Both the position numbers and the translations under genes were made by a program. From IMG/VR virus record IMGVR_UViG_3300032373_000038, positions 1 to 41,954 of that record: a stretch of 41,954 nt of DNA; one strand, 5' to 3'. The stretch is from a virus (taxonomy: Duplodnaviria > Caudoviricetes). Under the pieces are notes generated by a model that was given only the letters and a program-made list of their open reading frames with translations, was not told the DNA's origin and ran no database searches. Shown here in pieces: positions 46 to 41,880 of the stretch (position 1 is its first letter; every line of letters starts with the position of its first letter).

Positions 46-122
46 CGGGGCGTAGCGCAGCCTGGTAGCGCACCTGCATGGGGTGCAGGTGGTCGCAGGT
101 TCAAATCCTGCCGTCCCGACCA
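46..122 (+). tRNA. tRNA-Pro(GGG), intact copy at the left att site
   Basis: Cloverleaf: acceptor CGGGGCG/CGTCCCG, D arm GCGC/GCGC, anticodon stem CCTGC/GCAGG with loop AT-GGG-GT, T arm GCAGG-TTCAAAT-CCTGC, encoded CCA at 120-122. Confidence 0.97.
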
Positions 123-127
123 AATTT
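75..127 (+). repeat. att core, left copy (3' part of tRNA-Pro)
   Basis: TGCATGGGGTGCAGG...CCCGACCAAATTT is identical to 41828-41880. Confidence 0.96.
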
Positions 128-218: not shown

Positions 219-1247
219 CTATTTGGTCGGCGTAACCGTTGGCTTTTTCCTGTCATAAATAGCGGTTTGATCGGCTGATCGATGGCCGCCAGCCAATTGC
301 TTTCCTGTCTCAGTGTCGGACACACCCTTGGCTTTCAGGTCGTGGAAATTGAAGGGCTCGATACCTGCCGCTTTCATTTTCTTCTTATGTCGCTGCCAGG
401 CACTATTAAAGGCGGTGATCGTGATTGGTTGCCCATGCCGGTCGTGAATAATGTAAATGCTCGATATTTGAGAGGGCAGGTCGCCGGCCATGTCAATAGC
501 GGCTTTCAATCGGTCCGACCAGCTAGTTAGAGTGTCACGGCTTCCTTTTAGTCTGAGAGTATCCAATCCATCCTCTAGCACCTGGTCCTTGGTCGCTTTG
601 AGTATTTCCCCTCTACGCATTCGGCACAGGTAAGCAATCTCCATCATAGGCTGAAGATAGGACGGGCCACTGGCTGCCAGAGCATAGGATTTGTTGTATT
701 CGTCGTCCGTCACGTATCGTTTGCGACTACTCTCCTGATTTCTGGAAACCTTGTCACAGGGGTTTTCAACGGCTACGAAGTCTCGCTCAAGTGCCCAATT
801 CCATGCTTTGCTGATTACTGCTTTCTCACGATTGCCAGCAACCGGCGCACCGTCTTCTTCTCGCTTATCGAGATAACGACGTATCACGCCCTTTGTAATG
901 TTCTTCAAGTGAACTTTCCCGAATGTGTCACCGCCTGCCTTTAATGGGTATTTGACAAGGGCATCAATGATTCTGGAGTGCTCCCTGATTGTGTCTTTGG
1001 ATTTTGGCCGTTTGCCAATGAACTCAAACTCTCTGCTATTTTTGTATTCCGTTAGCAGCCAAGCCAAGGTGCTAACGTGATTGGCTTGGAGTTCTTCCCA
1101 TTTTTGCCAGACAGTCGAGATCGGGGCATCAAGCGAGCATAATCGGGTGCATGGCCGCTTCTGGCCTTCGCCCAGGTATGGGCGGTATTCGTATGCCGAT
1201 TTTCCTTTATATGTGCTAGGAGGAAGAGGATTCTTGCCTTTGCTCAT
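219..1247 (-). CDS. int: Phage tyrosine recombinase (integrase)
   Basis: Catalytic pattern R (LCRMRRGE), K (RLKG), HDLKAK, H (GGHRS), Y (IYDR); directly beside att. Confidence 0.93.
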   Translation of the reverse strand: MSKGKNPLPPSTYKGKSAYEYRPYLGEGQKRPCTRLCSLDAPISTVWQKWEELQANHVSTLAWLLTEYKNSREFEFIGKRPKSKDTIREHSRIIDALVKYPLKAGGDTFGKVHLKNITKGVIRRYLDKREEDGAPVAGNREKAVISKAWNWALERDFVAVENPCDKVSRNQESSRKRYVTDDEYNKSYALAASGPSYLQPMMEIAYLCRMRRGEILKATKDQVLEDGLDTLRLKGSRDTLTSWSDRLKAAIDMAGDLPSQISSIYIIHDRHGQPITITAFNSAWQRHKKKMKAAGIEPFNFHDLKAKGVSDTETGKQLAGGHRSADQTAIYDRKKPTVTPTK

Positions 1248-2553: not shown

Positions 2554-3411
2554 CTAAGCGGCCCCTAGCTCCTGCTTCTTGGTGTTAAGCTGTTTAATTA
2601 ATTCGCCGCGGTGGATTTCGTTTTTGACAGACCCAATTAACGATTCAGCAAGCTCAACGTCATCAGCTGTTTTGGCATTTTTGATATCGCCAGCTACTGA
2701 TGCATAGGTGGCTGGCAGTGTTACTATTTCTTGATCTGGGCTTGCCTCATCATCTGGAGTGACCGCCTTTTCTTCTTGCTTTAGGTCTTGTGTGGTAACG
2801 CTATAGGCTCCGGTCTCATCCATCTTTGCATCAAATGTTTCATTAATTTGATCGGCTGTTTGTAGACCCATGGATATCTCAGGAGCAACGGTATCCACCA
2901 ACCATGCAGCAGAGCGATACATGAACATTTTTTCGGGCATTGTTTTCCACTTAGAGCCATTTTTACTGTCCCACTTTTCAGCACGAACTAGATCCCATGT
3001 AATCCAAGGGGATTCGACGCGCTCATTAGTTGCCTTTTCCATTGCCCACGCACGACAACCATAATCACGATCACCTGGGTTGCCTTTCCACTCATACCGA
3101 ACAGAAGAGAAGCGACCACATTGGTTAAATGATGCGATTAAAAACTTGGCAGACCATCCAGGTGTTCCATGAACGACATAAAGGTTTTGCATAACCATTA
3201 GTGGATCGGCACCAACACGGTTAGCCATGTTTAGCGCAATCACGCAGTTCGATAAATTATCTCTGTACTGCTGAGGAACTAGCGTTGAGGCGGCTAGCAT
3301 ATTTGCTTGGCGCTGCATTAGCTCAAAGCTAGCGGAAGTGCTGAAGCCAGCGGTAACTACTTCCTGGCTTCCTTGTTGTTGCATTTGGGATAAAGTGACT
3401 TGCTGATCCAT
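2554..3411 (-). CDS. Single-strand annealing recombinase (RecT-like)
   Basis: NCVIALNMANRVGADPLMVMQNLYVVHGTPGWS and WKTMPEKMFMYRSA motifs; paired with an exonuclease. Confidence 0.75.
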   Translation of the reverse strand: MDQQVTLSQMQQQGSQEVVTAGFSTSASFELMQRQANMLAASTLVPQQYRDNLSNCVIALNMANRVGADPLMVMQNLYVVHGTPGWSAKFLIASFNQCGRFSSVRYEWKGNPGDRDYGCRAWAMEKATNERVESPWITWDLVRAEKWDSKNGSKWKTMPEKMFMYRSAAWLVDTVAPEISMGLQTADQINETFDAKMDETGAYSVTTQDLKQEEKAVTPDDEASPDQEIVTLPATYASVAGDIKNAKTADDVELAESLIGSVKNEIHRGELIKQLNTKKQELGAA

Positions 3412-3422
3412 GGGTTAAGTCC

Positions 3423-4229
3423 TTATTTTCGAAAGTTGCAGGTGGTGTACCGCGGGCAATAGCGTTCGTGGCACATCATTGATTTTGGATTGCCGTAGAA
3501 GCTGCCTGAGTGAATTAGCTTTGATGCTTGAGAGAGAATTCCTGTATTGCTAGCATCACCAAGTAATACGGCTCTTGAGCCCGTGATCTCCCCAGAGCCA
3601 ATACGCTGAGAGGCGGGTGTTTTTGCTGTGTTAAGCCCGACGATTTCACCAGGTGCGGTAATGGGTAAGCCGCCGCCATATTCAGCAAGCAATTCATAAA
3701 CACCGATTTGGTAGGCATGGCCCTTGGTATTGACGTGGCCGTCTTTGGCAACAGCTTGCTTGCCTGTTTTAATATCAACAATGCCGTAGCCTCCATTGGT
3801 CTTGCGTATCCGGTCAGTTGTGCCGGTGAGCGCTAAACCAACATCAGTAATTTCGAGTCGATCACATTGCACTTCCACGGCCACATAGTTTTGAGTTGGT
3901 GCCACTTGCTCGCAGTATTTGCGGTGAAGAGATAGGGCTATTTTTTCAACGTCAGCAGGCTTGTCATCATCCCAAGAAACTTCTTCATCTGGGTTGGATA
4001 TGGTGTCTACTGCAGCACCTGCAGCTTCTTGGATAGTGATGCCTGAACCATCCAAGACCGCTTGGTCATATGCAGCCGTTGAGGCGTGCACCGCTCGACC
4101 AAGTTGAGCCTTACCGTTTGATGGTGTGTGCATCTTTAGAATGTGCTTTGATTCCCATCTAGCGGGGCAGTCGAATAATTCACCTAAGGAGCTTGCTCGA
4201 ATGGTGGTTAGCTTAATTGTTGTTTGCAT
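3423..4229 (-). CDS. PD-(D/E)XK exonuclease (RecB/Cas4-like, probable Fe-S)
   Basis: IRASSL...DCPARW, GTTD, IVDIKTG, QIGVY, C-terminal C-x4-C-x5-C. Confidence 0.85.
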   Translation of the reverse strand: MQTTIKLTTIRASSLGELFDCPARWESKHILKMHTPSNGKAQLGRAVHASTAAYDQAVLDGSGITIQEAAGAAVDTISNPDEEVSWDDDKPADVEKIALSLHRKYCEQVAPTQNYVAVEVQCDRLEITDVGLALTGTTDRIRKTNGGYGIVDIKTGKQAVAKDGHVNTKGHAYQIGVYELLAEYGGGLPITAPGEIVGLNTAKTPASQRIGSGEITGSRAVLLGDASNTGILSQASKLIHSGSFYGNPKSMMCHERYCPRYTTCNFRK

Positions 4230-8046: not shown

Positions 8047-8277
8047 ATGCTCAATTTCAAACGCCGAGCCGGCGAATCATTTTATATCTACCCCAACAAA
8101 GGCCTTCCTCCCGGCATGACTGTCGAGGAGCTGTTTAACGAAGACCTTATTGAGGTAGTTATCGTTGACCAGAGTAGCAATCAGACGAAGGTTGGCGTTA
8201 AAGCGCCCAAGGGGCTTGTTATTGTTAGAGGTGAGCTGGTGCGTGCGGAGCGCTTAGCGGGCGATGATGGCTCTTGA
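8047..8277 (+). CDS. csrA: CsrA/RsmA-family RNA-binding protein with RsmN/RsmF-like insertion
   Basis: MLNFKRRAGESFYI...NQTKVGVKAPKGLVIVRGEL aligns with CsrA MLILTRRVGETLMI...[20 protein letters not shown]; Arg44 equivalent kept; about 17-aa insert between beta2 and beta3. Confidence 0.85.
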   Translation: MLNFKRRAGESFYIYPNKGLPPGMTVEELFNEDLIEVVIVDQSSNQTKVGVKAPKGLVIVRGELVRAERLAGDDGS

Positions 8278-8493
8278 GTTGCGCTGTTAATAAGATGTTC
8301 AATACGATCCTTAAGCGCCGCTTCATCGGGCTCTACTTCGATCTTGGTTGGAAATTGAATAATTTTTTGGCTGTCCATGCATTCCCCAAAAAGCACAAAT
8401 CCTGGCATTGCCAGTTTTATTATTTGTGCGTGCTTTTGGTAGGACGCTGTATGATTCGCGCTGCTGGTAGGGCGAGCACCGAATATACCGTGA

Positions 8494-9093
8494 TTAGTTG
8501 CTAGGGTCTATTAATGAGTCCCTAATGCAGTCGGGAAGATTCGATCTAGCATCGACCTGATTCATTATTTCTGTCGCTAAGTCATGTAATTTGACGCGAC
8601 GCCGATTTGATTCTGTAGCTAGGAATTTTTTGGCGTCATTAACGGACAGGCCAAGGCGACAGCAAATGATTGCAATAGCTCCCGATAGGGCGCGTGAGTT
8701 CTCAACAGCCGACTCAAGCGCTGTGACGCGCCGAACATAGCGCAGACCCACTTTCACAGAGGCTAGCACTTGCTGTAGCTGAATCGGTTTATCAATATAA
8801 CCAACTGAGCCAAGGCGATCCCACTCAGCAATAATACCGTCGTCCCTGGCTGCCGTTGTGCCAATGAATGCTGTACCAAGATTATTTAACTCAACAGCAA
8901 GCTCAAGGCCTGACATTCCAGGCATCATGCAATCTATGATAGCTACATCAACATGGTTTGTTGCGATAATAGCTAGCGCTTCTGCACCGCTGCTAGCTTC
9001 AATAACAATGCATCCATTTTTTTCTAATAAAAGCCGAAGCGGCGCTCGCCCCATTTCTTCATCATCAACAATCAATATTACAGAGTTACGCAT
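8494..9093 (-). CDS. Response regulator, REC plus ANTAR domain
   Basis: REC: IVDDEE, phospho-acceptor IIDCMMPGMSG, TTA, DKP. C-terminus SRALSGAIAIICCRLGLSVNDAKKFLATESNRRRVKLHDLATEI has the three-helix ANTAR pattern. Confidence 0.82.
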   Translation of the reverse strand: MRNSVILIVDDEEMGRAPLRLLLEKNGCIVIEASSGAEALAIIATNHVDVAIIDCMMPGMSGLELAVELNNLGTAFIGTTAARDDGIIAEWDRLGSVGYIDKPIQLQQVLASVKVGLRYVRRVTALESAVENSRALSGAIAIICCRLGLSVNDAKKFLATESNRRRVKLHDLATEIMNQVDARSNLPDCIRDSLIDPSN

Positions 9094-10710: not shown

Positions 10711-11562
10711 ATGGCCAGACCAACAAAGCAGGGTATCGATTACTTCCCGATTGATTGTCAGTTTGACGACAAGATCGAGATGTATTTAATCGAAAAAGGG
10801 GCGACTGGCCTAGGTGTTTTGGTCACGCTTTGGCAGATGATTTATAGCAATGAAGGCTACTACATTGGTAACAATATTGACCTGCACTTGCTAATAAAAA
10901 GAAAAATAGATGTCGACGTAAACGAGGTTTCCGACTGCATTAACGTGTGTTTACGCCGGAATATATTTGACAGCGAAAAGCACGAAGAACATGAAATATT
11001 GACCTCGAAGGCTATTCAAAAGCGTTTTTTTGACGCTGCGAAAAAGAAGAAAACAGTGGCTGTAATAGAAGATTACGTTATTAACTCGGTTAATTCCGGC
11101 GGAAACTGGGTTTATGTTTGCGGAAATGCCACAAATGTAAATGTAGATGTAAAAGTAAATAAAAAAATAAACAAAAAAAATCCCGAAACCGAAAAGCCGG
11201 TTTCTGCTTCGCTTGATGACGAAGGAAAAAAACCAAAACCATCCCCAGTCCTGTTGAAGACCTATCTCGATGAATGTGATCAAGCCGGAACAAAACCCAT
11301 ACCGCCTGACGACAAGATTTTTGATTACGAAAGCGAAATCAATTTGCCAGACGGGTATTTGGGTTTGTGCTGGACCGTGTTCAAGGACGACTACACCAAC
11401 CCCGACAAAACTGGCAAGAAAAAATACACGGACTGGAAGGCTCATTTTCGAAATTATGTCCGCAAGAATTACCACAAGCTCTGGTGGCTAAACCCTCATG
11501 GCAAGTACCAGCTGACCACCGTCGGCATGCAAGCGGCCAGGGAGCACGGAATCAATGTCTGA
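10711..11562 (+). CDS. Replication initiator (DUF4373/Lin1244-like N-terminus)
   Basis: MARPTKQGIDYFPID...GYY, ILTSKAIQKRF; directly upstream of and overlapping dnaB. Confidence 0.8.
   Translation: MARPTKQGIDYFPIDCQFDDKIEMYLIEKGATGLGVLVTLWQMIYSNEGYYIGNNIDLHLLIKRKIDVDVNEVSDCINVCLRRNIFDSEKHEEHEILTSKAIQKRFFDAAKKKKTVAVIEDYVINSVNSGGNWVYVCGNATNVNVDVKVNKKINKKNPETEKPVSASLDDEGKKPKPSPVLLKTYLDECDQAGTKPIPPDDKIFDYESEINLPDGYLGLCWTVFKDDYTNPDKTGKKKYTDWKAHFRNYVRKNYHKLWWLNPHGKYQLTTVGMQAAREHGINV
11088..11190. other. Possible replication origin within the initiator gene
   Basis: Two imperfect 21-bp-spaced repeats (GGTTWAT...GCGGAAA at 11088 and 11109), then ATGTA repeats and an A-rich tract. Confidence 0.4.
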
Positions 11563-13817: not shown

Positions 13818-14294
13818 ATGACAACCGTAACCCAATTACCGGCCGCAGTAAGTGATGCTGATGTTGATTCAGCCCGTAAAGCGCTAGAAGGAAATGGCCG
13901 CGCCTTTGATGAGCCTGGCGTACTGGATGGTACGGAAAGCTCGCAAGCTGAAATGGAAGAAAATGAGAAGGTTCAGGTCCAGAAAATTGAAGGTGATAAT
14001 TTACCCGAAGTACCTAAGCCAGGCTTAGAAATCAATAAGTTCATCATGGATAAAAAGGCTGCGATGGATGAAATCAATCAGGAGCGAGCCAAGCTCAATG
14101 CAGATGCTTCTTTGATTCGTGAAGAACTTAAAAGCGAAGGCATTGACGTAGCGACGTTTGAGTATCAATGCAAGCTAATTGACATGGATGAAGACAAACG
14201 TCTTCGCGTTGACCAGACGAGTCGCCTGGTTCGTGCTGCTGCGGGCAAGAATATTCAAGACGATTTATTTACATCTACCGAAACAAAGCACTAA
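13818..14294 (+). CDS. GapR/DUF2312-like DNA-binding protein with acidic N-terminal extension
   Basis: INQERAKLNADASLIREELKSEGIDVATF...KLIDMDEDKR resembles GapR [25 protein letters not shown]...RLRKxD. Confidence 0.55.
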   Translation: MTTVTQLPAAVSDADVDSARKALEGNGRAFDEPGVLDGTESSQAEMEENEKVQVQKIEGDNLPEVPKPGLEINKFIMDKKAAMDEINQERAKLNADASLIREELKSEGIDVATFEYQCKLIDMDEDKRLRVDQTSRLVRAAAGKNIQDDLFTSTETKH

Positions 14295-14297
14295 GTT

Positions 14298-14942
14298 ATG
14301 CTTTCTCACATCGATTATTGGTTGGATGTGTGGGCTAACTGGAGTCGGGGCCGTAGTGATAACGGCCTTGGCTCTAGCAGTAGCTCGCCCGAGTACCGAA
14401 TGATGACCGAAAACAAAGACACTACGAGCAAGTTTAAGCATCGCGGTAGTAAGCACATGTTGAATGTTGGCACTGAACAACATAAGCGTTTTGTTCAGCG
14501 TGATATCGATCACATGCGATGTGTTGAGAGTCGTGGCAAGTATCGGGAGTCGATTCCAGATAATCCCGTTGCTGAAATGATGGAGGATGCTGTAAATCAT
14601 CTTCGCAGCCCAATGTTTAAAGATGTAATTTTACTTAAATATCAATCGCAGTTTGGAACTCCTGTGTGTGCGAATTTAATGAAGATCAGTAAGGGTAAGT
14701 TTTTGATCATGCTTGGACAGATTCATGAGTCGCTTGATACGTATTTGAGGGCACATAATCCGGAGCAAGTGCATGAGGTTGTGACTGTTTACTCTGAGTT
14801 ATTTAATGAGCGTGAAGAGGCTATGGAGGAGGAGTGGCAAGCCAGTATTGAGCGCTTTGATGTGAGCGCTGCAGGTTTGACTGAAGGAGAGAAGGCGAAG
14901 CTGAGGGTTGTGCTGATGATTGAGGGAAGGTTGCGAAAATGA
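14298..14942 (+). CDS. Q-like late antiterminator
   Basis: IDYWLDVWANW N-terminus, C-terminal sigma-4-like HTH, position after rusA, and a PR'-like promoter downstream. Confidence 0.65.
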   Translation: MLSHIDYWLDVWANWSRGRSDNGLGSSSSSPEYRMMTENKDTTSKFKHRGSKHMLNVGTEQHKRFVQRDIDHMRCVESRGKYRESIPDNPVAEMMEDAVNHLRSPMFKDVILLKYQSQFGTPVCANLMKISKGKFLIMLGQIHESLDTYLRAHNPEQVHEVVTVYSELFNEREEAMEEEWQASIERFDVSAAGLTEGEKAKLRVVLMIEGRLRK

Positions 14943-14957
14943 AGCCGCTTGTTATGT
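14939..14957 (-). mobile_element. Truncated attC (R''-spacer-L'' only)
   Basis: Minus strand ACATAAC-AAGCG-GCTTCATT matches the start of the four intact attC sites; no partner arm found. Confidence 0.55.
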
Positions 14958-14984
14958 GTCGTTCTAAATTAATTTAAAAACCCC

Positions 14985-15013
14985 TTTCGATACGACAATG
15001 TGTCGTATATAAT
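14985..15013 (+). promoter_or_regulatory. Sigma70-type promoter with palindromic operator
   Basis: TTTCGA-17 bp-TATAAT; ATACGACA-ATG-TGTCGTAT palindrome (14990-15008) fills the spacer. Confidence 0.75.
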
Positions 15014-15054
15014 GTATTCACAGTCAGAGAGAAAACAACGCAAGGAGAGATCAA

Positions 15055-15387
15055 ATGTACGAGACACGTGACGAGCTTGTAGAGCAACTATATAAGGATC
15101 TAAAAGAGGGAAAGTATACCGACTCATACTATGGAAAATTATTGACTAGTCCGTCTTTTTTTGAAGAAGAAGCAAGAGTGAAATGTGAAAAAGCAAAGAA
15201 GGAAGTAGAGCAGTTCTTAGCTGACACTAAGCCCGGCGACAAAATGTACGGTGAAGAATTTTCAGAAATATACACAGAAAAAAGCTATAAGCAACAAATA
15301 GAAAATATAGAAAGACGTGCAAATATTGATAATCAAAGGGAATGGCTAAAAACAACGGCAGAGAACATAATTTTAGGACTTGAGTAA
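15055..15387 (+). CDS. Hypothetical protein (A-rich accessory module)
   Basis: AAGGAG RBS; 110 aa; no recognised family. Confidence 0.75.
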   Translation: MYETRDELVEQLYKDLKEGKYTDSYYGKLLTSPSFFEEEARVKCEKAKKEVEQFLADTKPGDKMYGEEFSEIYTEKSYKQQIENIERRANIDNQREWLKTTAENIILGLE

Positions 15388-15439
15388 CAACCTTAAACCA
15401 ACGCGGCCGGCCAATTTGGCCGGCTTCTGAGGCAATAAA

Positions 15440-16009
15440 ATGAAATTCAAAATAGTATTTTTCCCATATTCGGAAAAAGCAGGCCTCGATTTATTGGACG
15501 AATACGAGCGATTAAATTTTCCAGAGCATCAGCGTAAAAATAAATTCGAAGCAGGTGGCGCCGATATTGATGTCCCGATTGAAGTAGCGAGACTATTAAG
15601 CAATATCTTTCATGACTCAACAACTGCACACATACATATCGATAGCTCTCTAACCTCGGCTGACAGTTGGGAAGAAGATCATTACGACGTAATGCGACTC
15701 AAGAAAATAGACCTTTCTGAACTGACATGCAAAATGCTAACAGCAAATAGGAAGCAACTCGAACACAAGAAAGCAGGATTCGATACGTTTTTCGAGCATG
15801 AAAATGCTAACGACAATATCGAGCTTGACGCAACTGAAAAACAAACAATTAAAACAACATTAAAAAAACGTGGCATCACTGAAAAAGATATCGATTTTGC
15901 AATTCAAAAAACAACAAATCAGAAGACTCTAAGAAGAAAAATAGATGAAATAAAAACTATTAAAACGCTAGAACTCGCAATTGAAACAGCGGGAGAACGA
16001 AAAAAATGA
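15440..16009 (+). CDS. Hypothetical protein (A-rich accessory module)
   Basis: GAGG RBS after a GCCGGCCA/TGGCCGGC hairpin; ATGA overlap with the next gene. Confidence 0.75.
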   Translation: MKFKIVFFPYSEKAGLDLLDEYERLNFPEHQRKNKFEAGGADIDVPIEVARLLSNIFHDSTTAHIHIDSSLTSADSWEEDHYDVMRLKKIDLSELTCKMLTANRKQLEHKKAGFDTFFEHENANDNIELDATEKQTIKTTLKKRGITEKDIDFAIQKTTNQKTLRRKIDEIKTIKTLELAIETAGERKK

Positions 16010-16254
16010 ACAAAGCAACCGAAGTGCGTAAGGCATTGGGCCTCACACAAAAGGAGGCTGGTGAATTGTTCGCTGGTCAAGCTGGGCAAAATGCTAGCGA
16101 CACATGGGGCCGATGGGAACGGACGGAAAAATGGCCCAAGCCCGCAGACAAGCTCATGACATTAATTCTCGCGTTAAAAGTGGCCGAGAGTTTAAAAACA
16201 CCAGGCGTTAGCAAGGGATTGGAATTTGCACTCAATGAGCTTAGAGAAAAATAA
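16006..16254 (+). CDS. XRE-family HTH regulator
   Basis: VRKALGLTQKEAGELF...TWGRWE. Confidence 0.8.
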   Translation: MNKATEVRKALGLTQKEAGELFAGQAGQNASDTWGRWERTEKWPKPADKLMTLILALKVAESLKTPGVSKGLEFALNELREK

Positions 16255-16261
16255 GGAAAGT

Positions 16262-16316
16262 TGAGCTATTAGGAAATCCCGAATAACTGAGTATTCCGGA
16301 ATTTCCGGATAACTGA
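16262..16316. repeat. Two tandem imperfect palindromes (about 26-bp period)
   Basis: TGAGCTATTAGGAAATCCCGAATAACTGA followed by TGAGTATTCCGGAATTTCCGGATAACTGA. Confidence 0.65.
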
Positions 16317-16323
16317 AGTAGAG

Positions 16324-16408
16324 GCATAACGTTAGGCATAAATTGCGGCCCACTGAAATAGAAAAAGACGCGGCGCGTTCGCCGTCAATTTAATGTCCTT
16401 TGTTATGT
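16324..16408 (-). mobile_element. attC site 1 (85 bp)
   Basis: Minus strand ACATAAC AAAGG ACATTAAATTGACGGC...GCCGCAATTTATGC CTAAC GTTATGC. Confidence 0.85.
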
Positions 16409-16428
16409 GGGCTACGGAGACCAGAACC

Positions 16429-16689
16429 ATGACTAATAAAGTAACAATACAGCAAGTTAATAAATTCAAAGTGACCATAGGTGATAAGACCTATGAAGAT
16501 TTTGAGAAGGTTAGCGAATGGAATGGGATGCTCGAATTTAAAGGGCCAAGCGGAACAATCATTGTTCATAAGGAAGAAGATATGATGGCGACATTTTCAT
16601 CTATATTTGGGAATGTGAAACAGCCAGACGCAACTGATTTTCATATAGCCAAGATATCCCCAGGACTGGTTGATACCACTGCCACATAA
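16429..16689 (+). CDS. Cassette ORF, hypothetical (start ATG 16429)
   Basis: CTACGGAG RBS; stop TAA lies in the core site. Confidence 0.75.
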   Translation: MTNKVTIQQVNKFKVTIGDKTYEDFEKVSEWNGMLEFKGPSGTIIVHKEEDMMATFSSIFGNVKQPDATDFHIAKISPGLVDTTAT

Positions 16690-16813
16690 CGCAAAGCATC
16701 ACGGGCTTGCGGAAATGAGGCCACAAAACTTGGAGCGATTATTGATATGAGCGGGACCACAGAGCTAGAAGCGAACACCGAGGTAGCAAGTCCAGTGGAT
16801 GCGATTGTTAGGC
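16684..16813 (-). mobile_element. attC site 2 (130 bp)
   Basis: Minus strand GCCTAAC AATCG CATCCACTGGACTTGC...GCAAGCCCGTGATGC TTTGC GTTATGT. Confidence 0.88.
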
Positions 16814-17127
16814 GTATTTTACGACTGACCCTGACGAAACAATGGTTTGATTTGATCGTGAAAGGCGAAAAGAAATTTGAGTATCGTGAGTACAAAAAAC
16901 ACTGGATGTCTCGCTTGCTTTGCAGTAGCGGCATTAGAAACTATGACGAAATTCATTTCACCAACGGCTACGGAAAAGATAAGCCCTTTGCTCGCGTAGA
17001 ATTTGATGGCGCTGCAATTATTAAAGGTGAGCATTGCTCTCCAGATAATGATGAGGCACTGGACTCTGATAAGAAATATTTTGTTATTGGCCTTGGCGAA
17101 GTTTTAGAGGTTGGTAACTACGCCTAA
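16747..17127 (+). CDS. Cassette ORF, ASCH/PUA-like domain protein
   Basis: LTLTKQWFDLIVKGEKKFEYR (GxKxxExR) ... IHFTNGY. Confidence 0.82.
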   Translation: MSGTTELEANTEVASPVDAIVRRILRLTLTKQWFDLIVKGEKKFEYREYKKHWMSRLLCSSGIRNYDEIHFTNGYGKDKPFARVEFDGAAIIKGEHCSPDNDEALDSDKKYFVIGLGEVLEVGNYA

Positions 17128-17251
17128 CGCCAAGCATCACAGGCTTGCGGAAGCGAGACCACAAAAATTGGAGTAAAAATTAACATGAGCGAAGCCACAG
17201 AACCTAAACCAAACGCCGAGGCAGCAAGTCCGGTGAATGCAATTGTTAGGC
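17122..17251 (-). mobile_element. attC site 3 (130 bp, about 78% identical to site 2 by hand count)
   Basis: Minus strand GCCTAAC AATTG CATTCACCGGACTTGC...GCAAGCCTGTGATGC TTGGC GTTAGGC. Confidence 0.88.
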
Positions 17252-17604
17252 GCGACGATACCAAGTGCGGTGATAAATGCACTGACCCTAAAGGCTGTTA
17301 TGCCCACGGCTGCCTGGTTGAGGTTGGCCTTGATGAGCGGATGATTGCCGCTGGCATGATCCCTATTAGTGAGATGCTAGAGCGCAACCCTCTTGGTAAA
17401 TTTTCGGCGTGTGCTGAAGTTACAGATTTAGAGAATTTCGAGAAATGGCTAAAGGATTGCTATCGCGAATTTTTACAAATGCAAGTACGCATGACTTTAG
17501 CTAAGAAAGAAGACGATGAGCTTTTCGAATGGACGCTGAGTCATGCCGCTTGCCTTGGCTCTGTTTTGGCAAACTTTAGGCAGGCAACAGGACGCAGCGC
17601 CTAA
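17185..17604 (+). CDS. Cassette ORF, hypothetical with Cys-rich segment
   Basis: GGAG RBS and ATG inside attC 3; stop in the core site. Confidence 0.75.
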   Translation: MSEATEPKPNAEAASPVNAIVRRDDTKCGDKCTDPKGCYAHGCLVEVGLDERMIAAGMIPISEMLERNPLGKFSACAEVTDLENFEKWLKDCYREFLQMQVRMTLAKKEDDELFEWTLSHAACLGSVLANFRQATGRSA

Positions 17605-17666
17605 CGGAGAAGCTGAGTTGCGTTTGTAGCGCAGCGGAAAACGTCAAATCGAGCGCATTGTTATGC
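17599..17666 (-). mobile_element. attC site 4 (68 bp)
   Basis: Minus strand GCATAAC AATGC GCTCGATTTGACGTTT...CGCTGCGCT...AAACGCAACTCAGC TTCTCC GTTAGGC, a typical short attC. Confidence 0.9.
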
Positions 17667-17687
17667 GTGACTACGGAGTGAACATCA

Positions 17688-17972
17688 ATGCTTAAAATGA
17701 AAGATAAAAGGGACGCTGGTGCGATATTAGAAAGAGGTGGTATCTCGCAGCGGATTATAAGTATTGCCCAAGAAATTGCAGAAGGCTCTTATAAGGATGC
17801 AATTAAAAATGCTGGGCGAATTGCTGCACTAGTTGATGCCGCTACTTACGATGGTTATTGGGACGCTAAAGCCAAGGAAGGGAAGCTTCAGGAAGAATTT
17901 ATTCTTGAGGATTTGAATAAAGGCGTGGTTACGCGAGAAAGAATGATAGCTCAAGTAGACCCTTACGCATAA
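17688..17972 (+). CDS. Cassette ORF, hypothetical
   Basis: CTACGGAG RBS; stop TAA in the terminal core site GCATAAC (17967-17973). Confidence 0.75.
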   Translation: MLKMKDKRDAGAILERGGISQRIISIAQEIAEGSYKDAIKNAGRIAALVDAATYDGYWDAKAKEGKLQEEFILEDLNKGVVTRERMIAQVDPYA

Positions 17973-18142
17973 CTAGCGATACAAACCAACGTGGTGTAAT
18001 CCCCATCCGGGAATTACACCAGCTTTTAAGCAAATGACTCCATATGTTACTGATTATTGCTTTTGAAGCGGTGTATATCCAAATGTTGGCTATCGAAAAA
18101 TATCTTTTTCTGTGGAAAGAACCGCTGCATTCCCTTGATTTT

Positions 18143-18184
18143 TTGACAACTGTTTAAACAGTAACTAGAATTACTACCTAGAAT
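18143..18184 (+). promoter_or_regulatory. Late promoter PR' with candidate Q-binding element and sigma pause element
   Basis: TTGACA-17 bp-TAGAAT; perfect palindrome ACTGTTTAAACAGT in the spacer; second TAGAAT at 18179-18184 just after the predicted start site. Confidence 0.82.
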
Positions 18185-18198
18185 TGCGTGAATTGTCC

Positions 18199-18229
18199 AA
18201 AAAGCCTGGCCACTGTGCCGGGCTTTTTC
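18199..18229 (+). terminator. tR'-like terminator
   Basis: AAAAAGCCTGGC-CACTGT-GCCGGGCTTTTT directly after PR'. Confidence 0.8.
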
Positions 18230-18274
18230 GTTTGGACAATTTGGACAACATAAAAAACACATAGACAAGGCCTC

Positions 18275-19033
18275 GTGAGCACTCTGCTTAGCGGGGCCTT
18301 TGTCGTTTCTGAGGGCATGGTTTTGAAAGTCACAGCATCGATAAAAGCCACAATCAAAGAAGCGTGTAACTGGGCGCTGCTTGCATACCAGAGCCGCGGC
18401 TTTCTTGAGTCTCGCTACGGTGACCAAATCACTGTGATCGACATTGATAACGATAAGAGGGGCGAGTTTGTCTACGTTCTAGACCGGGGCGATTCTGCTG
18501 TAGTCGCTATCGCCGGCTCTAACGATATTCTTGATTGGATTCGAAACCTCATCTTTCGTAAGACCAAGTGCAAGCGCTATCACGCCGGTTTTTCTGCTGA
18601 ACTGGACAGGATTGCCGATCAAATTCTTGAGGCTGTCAGAAAGACGGGAGCGAAGTCAGTACTGGTTACGGGGCATAGTCGTGGCGGTGGCGTGGCGATT
18701 CAGTTGGTTCATAAATACCGTCATTACTTTCCCAATGATCTTGAGTTAGTTGTATTTGCTGCACCTCGTGCACTGACAAAGAAAGCTGGGTGGAATATTT
18801 CTAATTGTCGGTTCCTGAATGTGATCGTGGGCAATGACCTGGTCGCCTCTCTTCCTCTTGTTGCCTGGGGATTCAAAACCTATGGGCATGTGATCGAGTT
18901 AGGTGAAAAGCTTTCTTTGTGGTGTAGGGCGCTACGCTATACCCATGCGGTCAAGAACAAGGTTAAGCCAACGCTCAAGGGCATTAAGGATCATCTTCCC
19001 GCTGCTTACTCAAAAGCTGTGGGGAAGCTTTGA
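18275..19033 (+). CDS. Class 3 lipase (alpha/beta hydrolase); true start may be ATG 18317
   Basis: VAIAGSNDILDW lid, HAGF, nucleophile GHSRGG, FAAPR, NDLVASLP (Asp), DHLPAAY (His). Confidence 0.9.
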   Translation: MSTLLSGAFVVSEGMVLKVTASIKATIKEACNWALLAYQSRGFLESRYGDQITVIDIDNDKRGEFVYVLDRGDSAVVAIAGSNDILDWIRNLIFRKTKCKRYHAGFSAELDRIADQILEAVRKTGAKSVLVTGHSRGGGVAIQLVHKYRHYFPNDLELVVFAAPRALTKKAGWNISNCRFLNVIVGNDLVASLPLVAWGFKTYGHVIELGEKLSLWCRALRYTHAVKNKVKPTLKGIKDHLPAAYSKAVGKL

Positions 19034-19287
19034 TGAGTGAAATTGATCCAGCTACTGCAACCGCTGTGGGCGGCACCGGAATTGCTAGCTGGTGGATTAT
19101 TCGGTGGTTCTTTAGTCGCTCGATTAAGCGTGTTGATGATCTGGAGGAGCGCCTCGAGAAGTTGGAGCAAAACGCAGCGACACATGCTGACATTAAGCAG
19201 CTTCGAGAGGCAATAGAAAATGGTAATCGGTCTATTCATGAGCGGATCGATGGGCTGTATAAGCTTTGGGCTGAAAAACCAAAGTAG
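19030..19287 (+). CDS. Holin-like small protein (N-terminal hydrophobic segment plus coiled coil)
   Basis: AVGGTGIASWWIIRWFF then RVDDLEERLEKLE...IHERIDGL; lysis-slot position. Confidence 0.5.
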   Translation: MMSEIDPATATAVGGTGIASWWIIRWFFSRSIKRVDDLEERLEKLEQNAATHADIKQLREAIENGNRSIHERIDGLYKLWAEKPK

Positions 19288-19297
19288 CTGGTGATTA

Positions 19298-19723
19298 GTG
19301 CTGAACAATGCCAAGCGAGATGCCAAGCGAGACGATAAGTTTTTTGAGGCGCTTACTGAGGGTTATGGACCTGCTAATGCTGCAAAGATGGCTGGGTACT
19401 CTCGCTCTAGTGCGTACAACTATCGCAAGGAAGATAAGGCGTTTAGTGAGCGCTGGGATGATTCTCTTGCCGAGTATAAAGAAACGCTTGAGGCTGAAGC
19501 CGATAGACGGGCCCATGACGGTGTTACTGAGGGCATTTATTACCAGGGAAAAGAGGTTGGCAGTGTCCAAAAGTACTCTGATTCGCTTTTGATGTTTCGC
19601 CTTAAGAAAATTGACCCAAGTTACCGAGAGAACTTTAAACCTGATCCTCGTGATAGCGAGGATGACGATCCCGTGTCTGTTGAATTTGTAGTGATAGATG
19701 GTCGCAAAGATAGCGAGAGCTGA
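19298..19723 (+). CDS. terS: Terminase small subunit
   Basis: N-terminal HTH (AAKMAGYSRSSAYNYR), LEAEADRRA...YSDSLLMFRLK; upstream of terL. Confidence 0.85.
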   Translation: MLNNAKRDAKRDDKFFEALTEGYGPANAAKMAGYSRSSAYNYRKEDKAFSERWDDSLAEYKETLEAEADRRAHDGVTEGIYYQGKEVGSVQKYSDSLLMFRLKKIDPSYRENFKPDPRDSEDDDPVSVEFVVIDGRKDSES

Positions 19724-41827: not shown

Positions 41828-41880
41828 TGCATGGGGTGCAGGTGGTCGCAGGTTCAAATCCTGCCGTCCCGACCAAATTT
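41828..41880 (+). repeat. att core, right copy (3' tRNA-Pro fragment)
   Basis: Identical to 75-127; lacks the tRNA 5' half. Confidence 0.96.

Follow-up and report, generated by a model that had tools for sequence, protein, structure and literature searches.

Integrase-less array of four inverted integron-type cassettes in a whole prophage, probably assembled by an integron integrase supplied from outside

An array of four integron-type cassettes without an integrase gene was found in a whole prophage of the Caudoviricetes (IMG/VR record IMGVR_UViG_3300032373_000038; the entire 41,954-nucleotide stretch analyzed is called the window), and its assembly and reshuffling are probably the work of an integron integrase (IntI) that comes from elsewhere than the prophage. 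The locus is an integrase-less inverted cassette array, by definition a CALIN, and is neither a classical cassette array nor a complete integron. Phage clusters of attC sites without an integrase, and the activity of IntI1 on them, are already known; the inverted layout is apparently new.

That the window is a prophage, as had been predicted from the sequence, is borne out by a tRNA-Pro gene at 46-122 and a 53-bp direct repeat at 75 and 41828. These att repeats bound a whole prophage, despite a CheckV completeness of 63%.

75..127, plus strand: left att core, the 3' part of tRNA-Pro, 53-bp repeat
219..1247, minus strand: att-type tyrosine integrase of the prophage (phrog_1), not IntI, with no TIGR02249 match
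41828..41880, plus strand: right att core, 53-bp direct repeat

The att integrase is the single tyrosine recombinase in the window. No TIGR02249 match was found anywhere in the window, tblastn with a phage IntI as the query recovered no intI remnant there, and the only PF00589-type recombinase is that at 219-1247, all in agreement with the original prediction of a phage that has no intI and a sole recombinase of the att type. The proposed location of the array between Q and PR' holds only in part, as 14298-14942 has no Q-family match, three ORFs (15055-16254) separate it from the array, and the promoter match is at chance level: the promoter-like match at 18143-18171 (11/12) came from a scan that gave 5 matches against 6.5 expected by chance. 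A minus-strand promoter match near the array end (18081-18053, 9/12) is also at chance level. No Pc promoter drives the array from an attI; the array genes point toward the receiving end. The low-GC segment directly before the array (14990-16254, three ORFs) may have its own promoter, and its last ORF encodes a small HTH protein weakly similar to MqsA antitoxins. After the late-promoter-like site, 18275-19287 holds a class-3 lipase gene and a small holin-like ORF at the usual place of lysis genes; no endolysin was recognized among the 54 ORFs of the window, and the lipase gene was not found in the bacterial genomes searched. Near the repressor region (8047-9093) the prophage carries a CsrA homologue and a receiver-ANTAR response regulator. 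Comparison of 14300-19700 with 50,697 GenBank phages by blastn gave no match, and viral contigs with terminases 64 to 70% identical to that of the window share no DNA with 14200-19600, with no empty-site relative found.

The search for attC sites used a covariance model trained on 47 bacterial sites (of 56 collected from genomes by a motif scan and a grammar scanner blind to ORFs), none from the window; it is not IntegronFinder's model, and it was run unfiltered over both strands, with E-values that are rough. Exactly four sites of 29 to 46 bits were found (rough E-values, 8e-5 to 1e-8), and the next-best match in the 42-kb window scored 12.4 bits. The four attC-type hairpins of 85, 130, 130, and 68 bp that had been described between four single ORFs are thus present at their predicted places, and the covariance-model search of both strands that had been suggested as a check supports them.

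16324..16408, minus strand: attC1, 85 bp, 29.4 bits; its body belongs to cassette 1
16330..16689, plus strand: cassette 1, 360 bp; attC1 body, then an 86-aa ORF at 16429-16689; core complementarity
16684..16813, minus strand: attC2, 130 bp, 37.7 bits; contains the GGAG motif and ATG (16747) of ORF2
16690..17127, plus strand: cassette 2, 438 bp; attC2 body and an ASCH-like gene at 16747-17127, 126 aa
17122..17251, minus strand: attC3, 130 bp, of the attC2 family, 33.8 bits; contains the GGAG motif and ATG (17185) of ORF3
17128..17604, plus strand: cassette 3, 477 bp; attC3 body and a 139-aa ORF at 17185-17604
17599..17666, minus strand: attC4, 68 bp, 45.5 bits, a score inflated because part of the training set was gathered with a motif that attC4 has
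17605..17972, plus strand: cassette 4, 368 bp; attC4 body and a 94-aa ORF at 17688-17972; core complementarity

Four same-strand attC sites within 1.35 kb and no intI nearby make the locus a CALIN (at least two sites within 4 kb). The minus-strand left arms have the 5-nt spacer and extra bases of attC grammar. Compared with shuffled sequences, only attC1 folds better (z, -2.45; +0.23, -0.40, and -0.48 for attC2, attC3, and attC4), so that support for the sites comes from grammar and comparison and not from folding energy. In all four sites the plus strand gives the more stable fold, and bottom strands are described as folding more stably on average (PMC5027507). The attC3 site is 79% identical to an attC2-type site of metagenome contig L397, and exact patterns of the 130-bp attC family had no match in the viral contigs or the bacterial genomes. 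Siblings of attC1 (window 16323-16388, with a similar downstream leader) and attC2 (window 16685-16735) were each seen on another contig of run X1. A candidate fifth cassette upstream, with a GTTATG core at about 14951, was rejected, having no left arm and no covariance-model match.

The four core pairs, complementary end to end, are as originally described, and from them the unit sizes of 360, 438, 477, and 368 bp were confirmed; for unit 2 the boundaries also match those of homology to L397. Core complementarity by itself gives no orientation. All four attC top strands are on the minus strand and all four genes on the plus strand, so the coding strand is the attC bottom strand; it follows that the crossover reads TAA|C, that each attC body precedes its gene, and that every gene has the core TAA as its stop codon. 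The start codons of ORF2 and ORF3 lie inside attC2 and attC3, behind the GGAG motifs. In none of the four units is the gene on the attC top strand with attC downstream, as it is in a classical cassette. This inversion was absent from the original prediction, whose unit coordinates agree with the inverted layout. The window shares with the classical integron the R''-spacer-L''-L'-R' grammar, with a 5-nt spacer and extra bases in L'', as well as the AAC crossover and one small gene per unit, as these are described in PMC5027507 and PMC4889954. In the same sources the classical integron comprises intI, attI, Pc, and promoterless cassettes with attC after the gene. In contrast, the genes of the window lie on the bottom strand, attC stands in front and often encodes the start, and there is no intI or Pc.

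Viral contigs as a rule show this inversion, though not without exception. One motif pattern was run on viral contigs (61/64 parts) and bacterial genomes (3/64 parts). At single sites the viral set gave 46 inverted, 15 canonical, and 48 uncalled (n = 109) and the bacterial set 8 inverted, 70 canonical, and 48 uncalled (n = 126), a difference with a Fisher P value of 1.6e-15 on called sites. When units were defined by model matches 120 to 1,100 bp apart, with near-duplicate and single-site loci excluded, 85 of the 119 viral units (39 loci) were inverted, 3 canonical, and 31 unclear, against 1 inverted, 104 canonical, and 21 unclear among 126 bacterial units (45 loci); all of these orientation calls depend on longest-ORF rules and one seeding motif. 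The array of the published phage PH101 is inverted, its annotated genes being on the bottom strand, and two of its sites are recombined by IntI1 through that strand; the array of phage TJE1 is in canonical orientation. In PH101 (L257:25919-27987), four attC sites with bottom-strand genes are accompanied by duplicated stretches between the sites.

Which enzyme acts on these sites is suggested by the viral contigs that carry one. Among the 46 viral records with such attC sites, many of them fragments and 10 at least 90% complete, 2 passed the IntI cut-off and 12 had a PF00589 match. One of the two IntI-positive records has an inverted array, and a search with its IntI gave nine loci. Five distinct viral contigs (L425 to L429) have minus-strand arrays upstream of intI (TIGR02249, 466 to 476 bits) in the normal intI-attI-attC geometry; one of the IntI-bearing contigs, G053, is a complete genome with terminal repeats. 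Orientation calls by ORF length are noisy in the GC-rich arrays of L425 to L429; 6 of the 15 ORFs tested were PHROG positive, all 6 on the bottom strand. These contigs are variable in sequence as far as AA|C and conserved beyond it, ahead of intI; this defines the phage attI and fixes the crossover. In L425 and L428 a phage att integrase comes directly after intI, and upstream of the array in L426 (3397-4136) are ORFs that we take to resemble a diversity-generating retroelement region. In the four phages of the ASCH cassette clade described below (two of them complete), no IntI exceeded the cut-off. By these sequence comparisons IntI is the enzyme associated with such attC sites and likely the enzyme here; the original choice of IntI gains support from the recombinases found beside inverted arrays, which pass the IntI cut-off. 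Since IntI is scarce among such arrays, most must borrow it or have lost it, and since other phages carry their own IntI beside arrays, a co-infecting phage or a lost intI of the prophage itself is also a possible source, in addition to the host that had been proposed.

The right end of the array is where the insertion target would lie; the last gene stops there at TAA|C and is followed by no attC hairpin, in keeping with a receiving site.

17966..17990, minus strand: array end without an attC hairpin, putative insertion target (attI-like or a secondary site), crossover between 17972 and 17973
17992..18021, no strand assigned: 13-bp terminator-like hairpin just past the array (z, -3.5 and -4.0 for the 85-nt stretch containing it)

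The position of 17966-17990 corresponds to that of the conserved attI in the five IntI-bearing viral contigs, and its sequence neither matches that attI nor gives a covariance-model match. It has TA at offset 7-8, which is weak for one site; TA at offset 7-8 or 8-9 occurs in 12 of 16 other integrase-less array ends against a background of 12%. The array end of L071, a record that is 86% complete and without an IntI match, resembles the attI of L425 to L429. No intI lies beside the array of the window, as it would in a complete integron. The retention of an attI-like TA box at those 12 of 16 ends is also what might be expected of a frozen relic, that is, of a complete phage integron that lost intI beyond its right end and whose cassettes are now immobile, and complete inverted integrons do occur in phages with intI directly past the hairpin-less end. 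Predicted R-box pairing points the same way at two sites: it is 0.69 to 1.0 for all four attC sites in circle form and, in place, only 0.10 to 0.15 for attC2 and 0.27 for attC4, so that excision may be slow there. We nonetheless judge the relic reading unlikely, because the window contains no remnant of intI, the IntI-bearing arrays examined adjoin a phage att integrase whereas the array of the window precedes the late genes, and the perfect match persists in each of the four core pairs, a hint of recent insertion.

For cassette 2, and for it only, movement of a discrete core-bounded unit is seen. Contig L397 contains the equivalent of window 16683-17129 at 81.9% identity over 448 nt, with nothing in common to either side; in this six-site array the upstream attC and the ASCH-like gene are shared with the window core to core and the neighbors are different. 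For cassettes 1, 3, and 4, no second copy with context was found. In L001, whose ASCH gene is 78% identical, both cores have changed together (AGG/CCT in the window, ATG/CAT in L001). In 109 units, drawn from a set of loci in which two overlap and from the window, 4.58 of the 5 core positions are complementary within a unit; shuffling the pairs lowers this to 2.60 +/- 0.09. Junctions left by excision or empty sites were absent from the assembled contigs of two DNA runs, contigs being an assembly product that loses rare variants.

Units could also move with no site-specific enzyme, by homologous recombination or slippage between attC hairpins that are alike, and the prophage encodes a RecT-like annealing protein and an exonuclease (2554-4229), attC2 resembles attC3, and L400 has a collapsed 36-nt hybrid attC (350-395) before its ASCH gene. 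As an account of the array this is improbable, since the homology to L397 stops exactly at both TAAC cores, cores covary within units, the asymmetry of extrahelical bases is kept on one strand, and variation beside IntI stops precisely at AA|C. L404, with a full site, carries an almost identical ASCH gene; the hybrid attC of L400 is the result of decay through deletion between attC arms. Still less probable is that a short Xer-type recombinase, from a phage or a host, acts on the sites: a 219-aa frame with a PF00589 match, possibly short and Xer-like, lies some kilobases from an attC site in G017 and G046, but the sites of the window fit a model of ordinary bacterial attC, each recombinase found adjoining an inverted array passes the IntI cut-off, and the window has no second tyrosine recombinase.

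The relatives of the cargo are phage genes. The ORF of cassette 1 has 63 relatives at an E-value of 0.001 or lower, and the full-length ones align mostly from residue 1 to 6, which favors the start at 16429; it has no Pfam or PHROG match. The ASCH-like protein of cassette 2 matches phrog_625 (E-value, 5.5e-18), and about 20 of its first codons are encoded by attC2; a weak ASCH match is present in 30 of 34 homologues, the window protein itself being below the cut-off. The C-terminal approximately 90 aa of the cassette 3 ORF is a phage accessory domain with five homologues; as a single query the protein matched no viral contig, and an alignment search with the domain gave 10 viral loci, none with an attC match. 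The cassette 4 ORF matches phrog_33658 (E-value, 4.6e-8) and has one further homologue, at 60%. Profile searches placed cassettes 1, 3, and 4 in no named family, and no usable function for cassettes 1 and 3 came out of atlas searches. Related arrays carry methyltransferase, PAPS reductase, and Lar-like genes. The cargo genes have attC-free relatives in other phages. That the array is a block of ordinary bacterial integron cassettes captured by the phage, an event described for Vibrio and Shewanella prophages (PMC9892861), is scarcely credible given these phage relatives and the bacterial units being canonical (104/126; 1 inverted).

The ASCH family links genes with and without attC. In a midpoint-rooted tree of 32 rows, the 11 ASCH genes associated with arrays group in a single clade (96/91), and the other 21 have no attC match in their flanks, 3 of these being on short contigs. 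Within the clade, seven genes have their own upstream attC, one has a collapsed site, and three have none. The leader is missing from most ASCH homologues, whose length is about 104 aa. When five genes of the clade are compared, 49 to 55 of the 60 nt that follow the GTT core are identical, against only 5 to 12 of the 20 nt that precede it, which indicates replacement of attC bodies at this core. The core of L001-type copies is GTT-ATG; in the window it is GTT-AGG, and the gene start lies inside attC instead.

Under our preferred reading, IntI from the host or a co-infecting phage would fold and cut the plus (coding) strand at AA|C and release circles of 360, 438, 477, and 368 bp. New cassettes would enter at 17972/17973, the right end, which is the more distant one from the phage promoters upstream; with transcription running toward the insertion site, the newest cassettes would be last and not first. 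In attC2 and attC3, the site may double as a translation-start module, supplying a ribosome site and ATG. Recombination at one attC leaves the gene-to-attC orientation of a circle as it was, so that inverted and bacterial cassettes would make up separate pools, the inverted one perhaps being filled from ordinary accessory genes of phages. If a cassette were now and then excised through the top strand and then reinserted normally, its gene would receive the attC of the next cassette, which could explain the swapped bodies. On the presumption that the origin lies within the replication gene (10711-11562), lagging-strand synthesis would copy the coding strand, a placement reported to raise excision (PMC5371416); inversion would then keep the genes codirectional with replication yet recombinogenic.

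More tentatively, we consider it plausible that phages run a mirror-image integron economy, with an inverted pool made de novo from phage genes, an attC that is both recombination site and exchangeable translation start, and movement by host or phage IntI. The 11 array-associated ASCH copies, one clade in an otherwise attC-free family, together with the swapped attC bodies, would show this proposed economy in the act.

Several described systems resemble the array. Phage CALINs, clusters of attC sites without integrase, numbered 17 in 10,705 genomes, and five of six phage sites tested were recombined by IntI1 into attI1 with a preference for the bottom strand (Qi 2023; PMC9892861). Like the array of the window, these are attC clusters without intI in phages; the text of that report is silent on gene-versus-attC strand, its figures may show orientation, and it describes no natural exchange of cassettes, whereas here one whole cassette recurs in another array. 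Small CALINs are known to arise when IntI inserts cassettes at secondary GWT sites away from integrons (bioRxiv 10.1101/2022.09.11.507474), and the right end of the array is GTT on the minus strand. That attG/SALIN system was described for canonical cassettes in bacterial chromosomes, and the word "prophage" is absent from the text of the preprint. The inverted-integrase integrons of the Treponema group (PMC4889954, PMC13323075) are likewise an orientation variant; there intI is flipped relative to attC, whereas in inverted phage arrays the cargo is flipped and intI, where present, is regular. In the open-access and bioRxiv literature we found no description of an inverted cassette layout in phages.

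Integrons have been studied as bacterial devices. If phages keep an inverted pool of their own, IntI also drives the mosaicism of phage accessory genes. Pc would presumably leave inverted cassettes that entered a bacterial integron unexpressed, and the two pools would thereby stay separate. The mechanism by which integron cassettes are created has been stated to be unknown (PMC4889954), and gene families with and without attC offer a direct handle on cassette genesis. Should the mirror-image economy prove true, it would place cassette creation in phage genomes and make it traceable.
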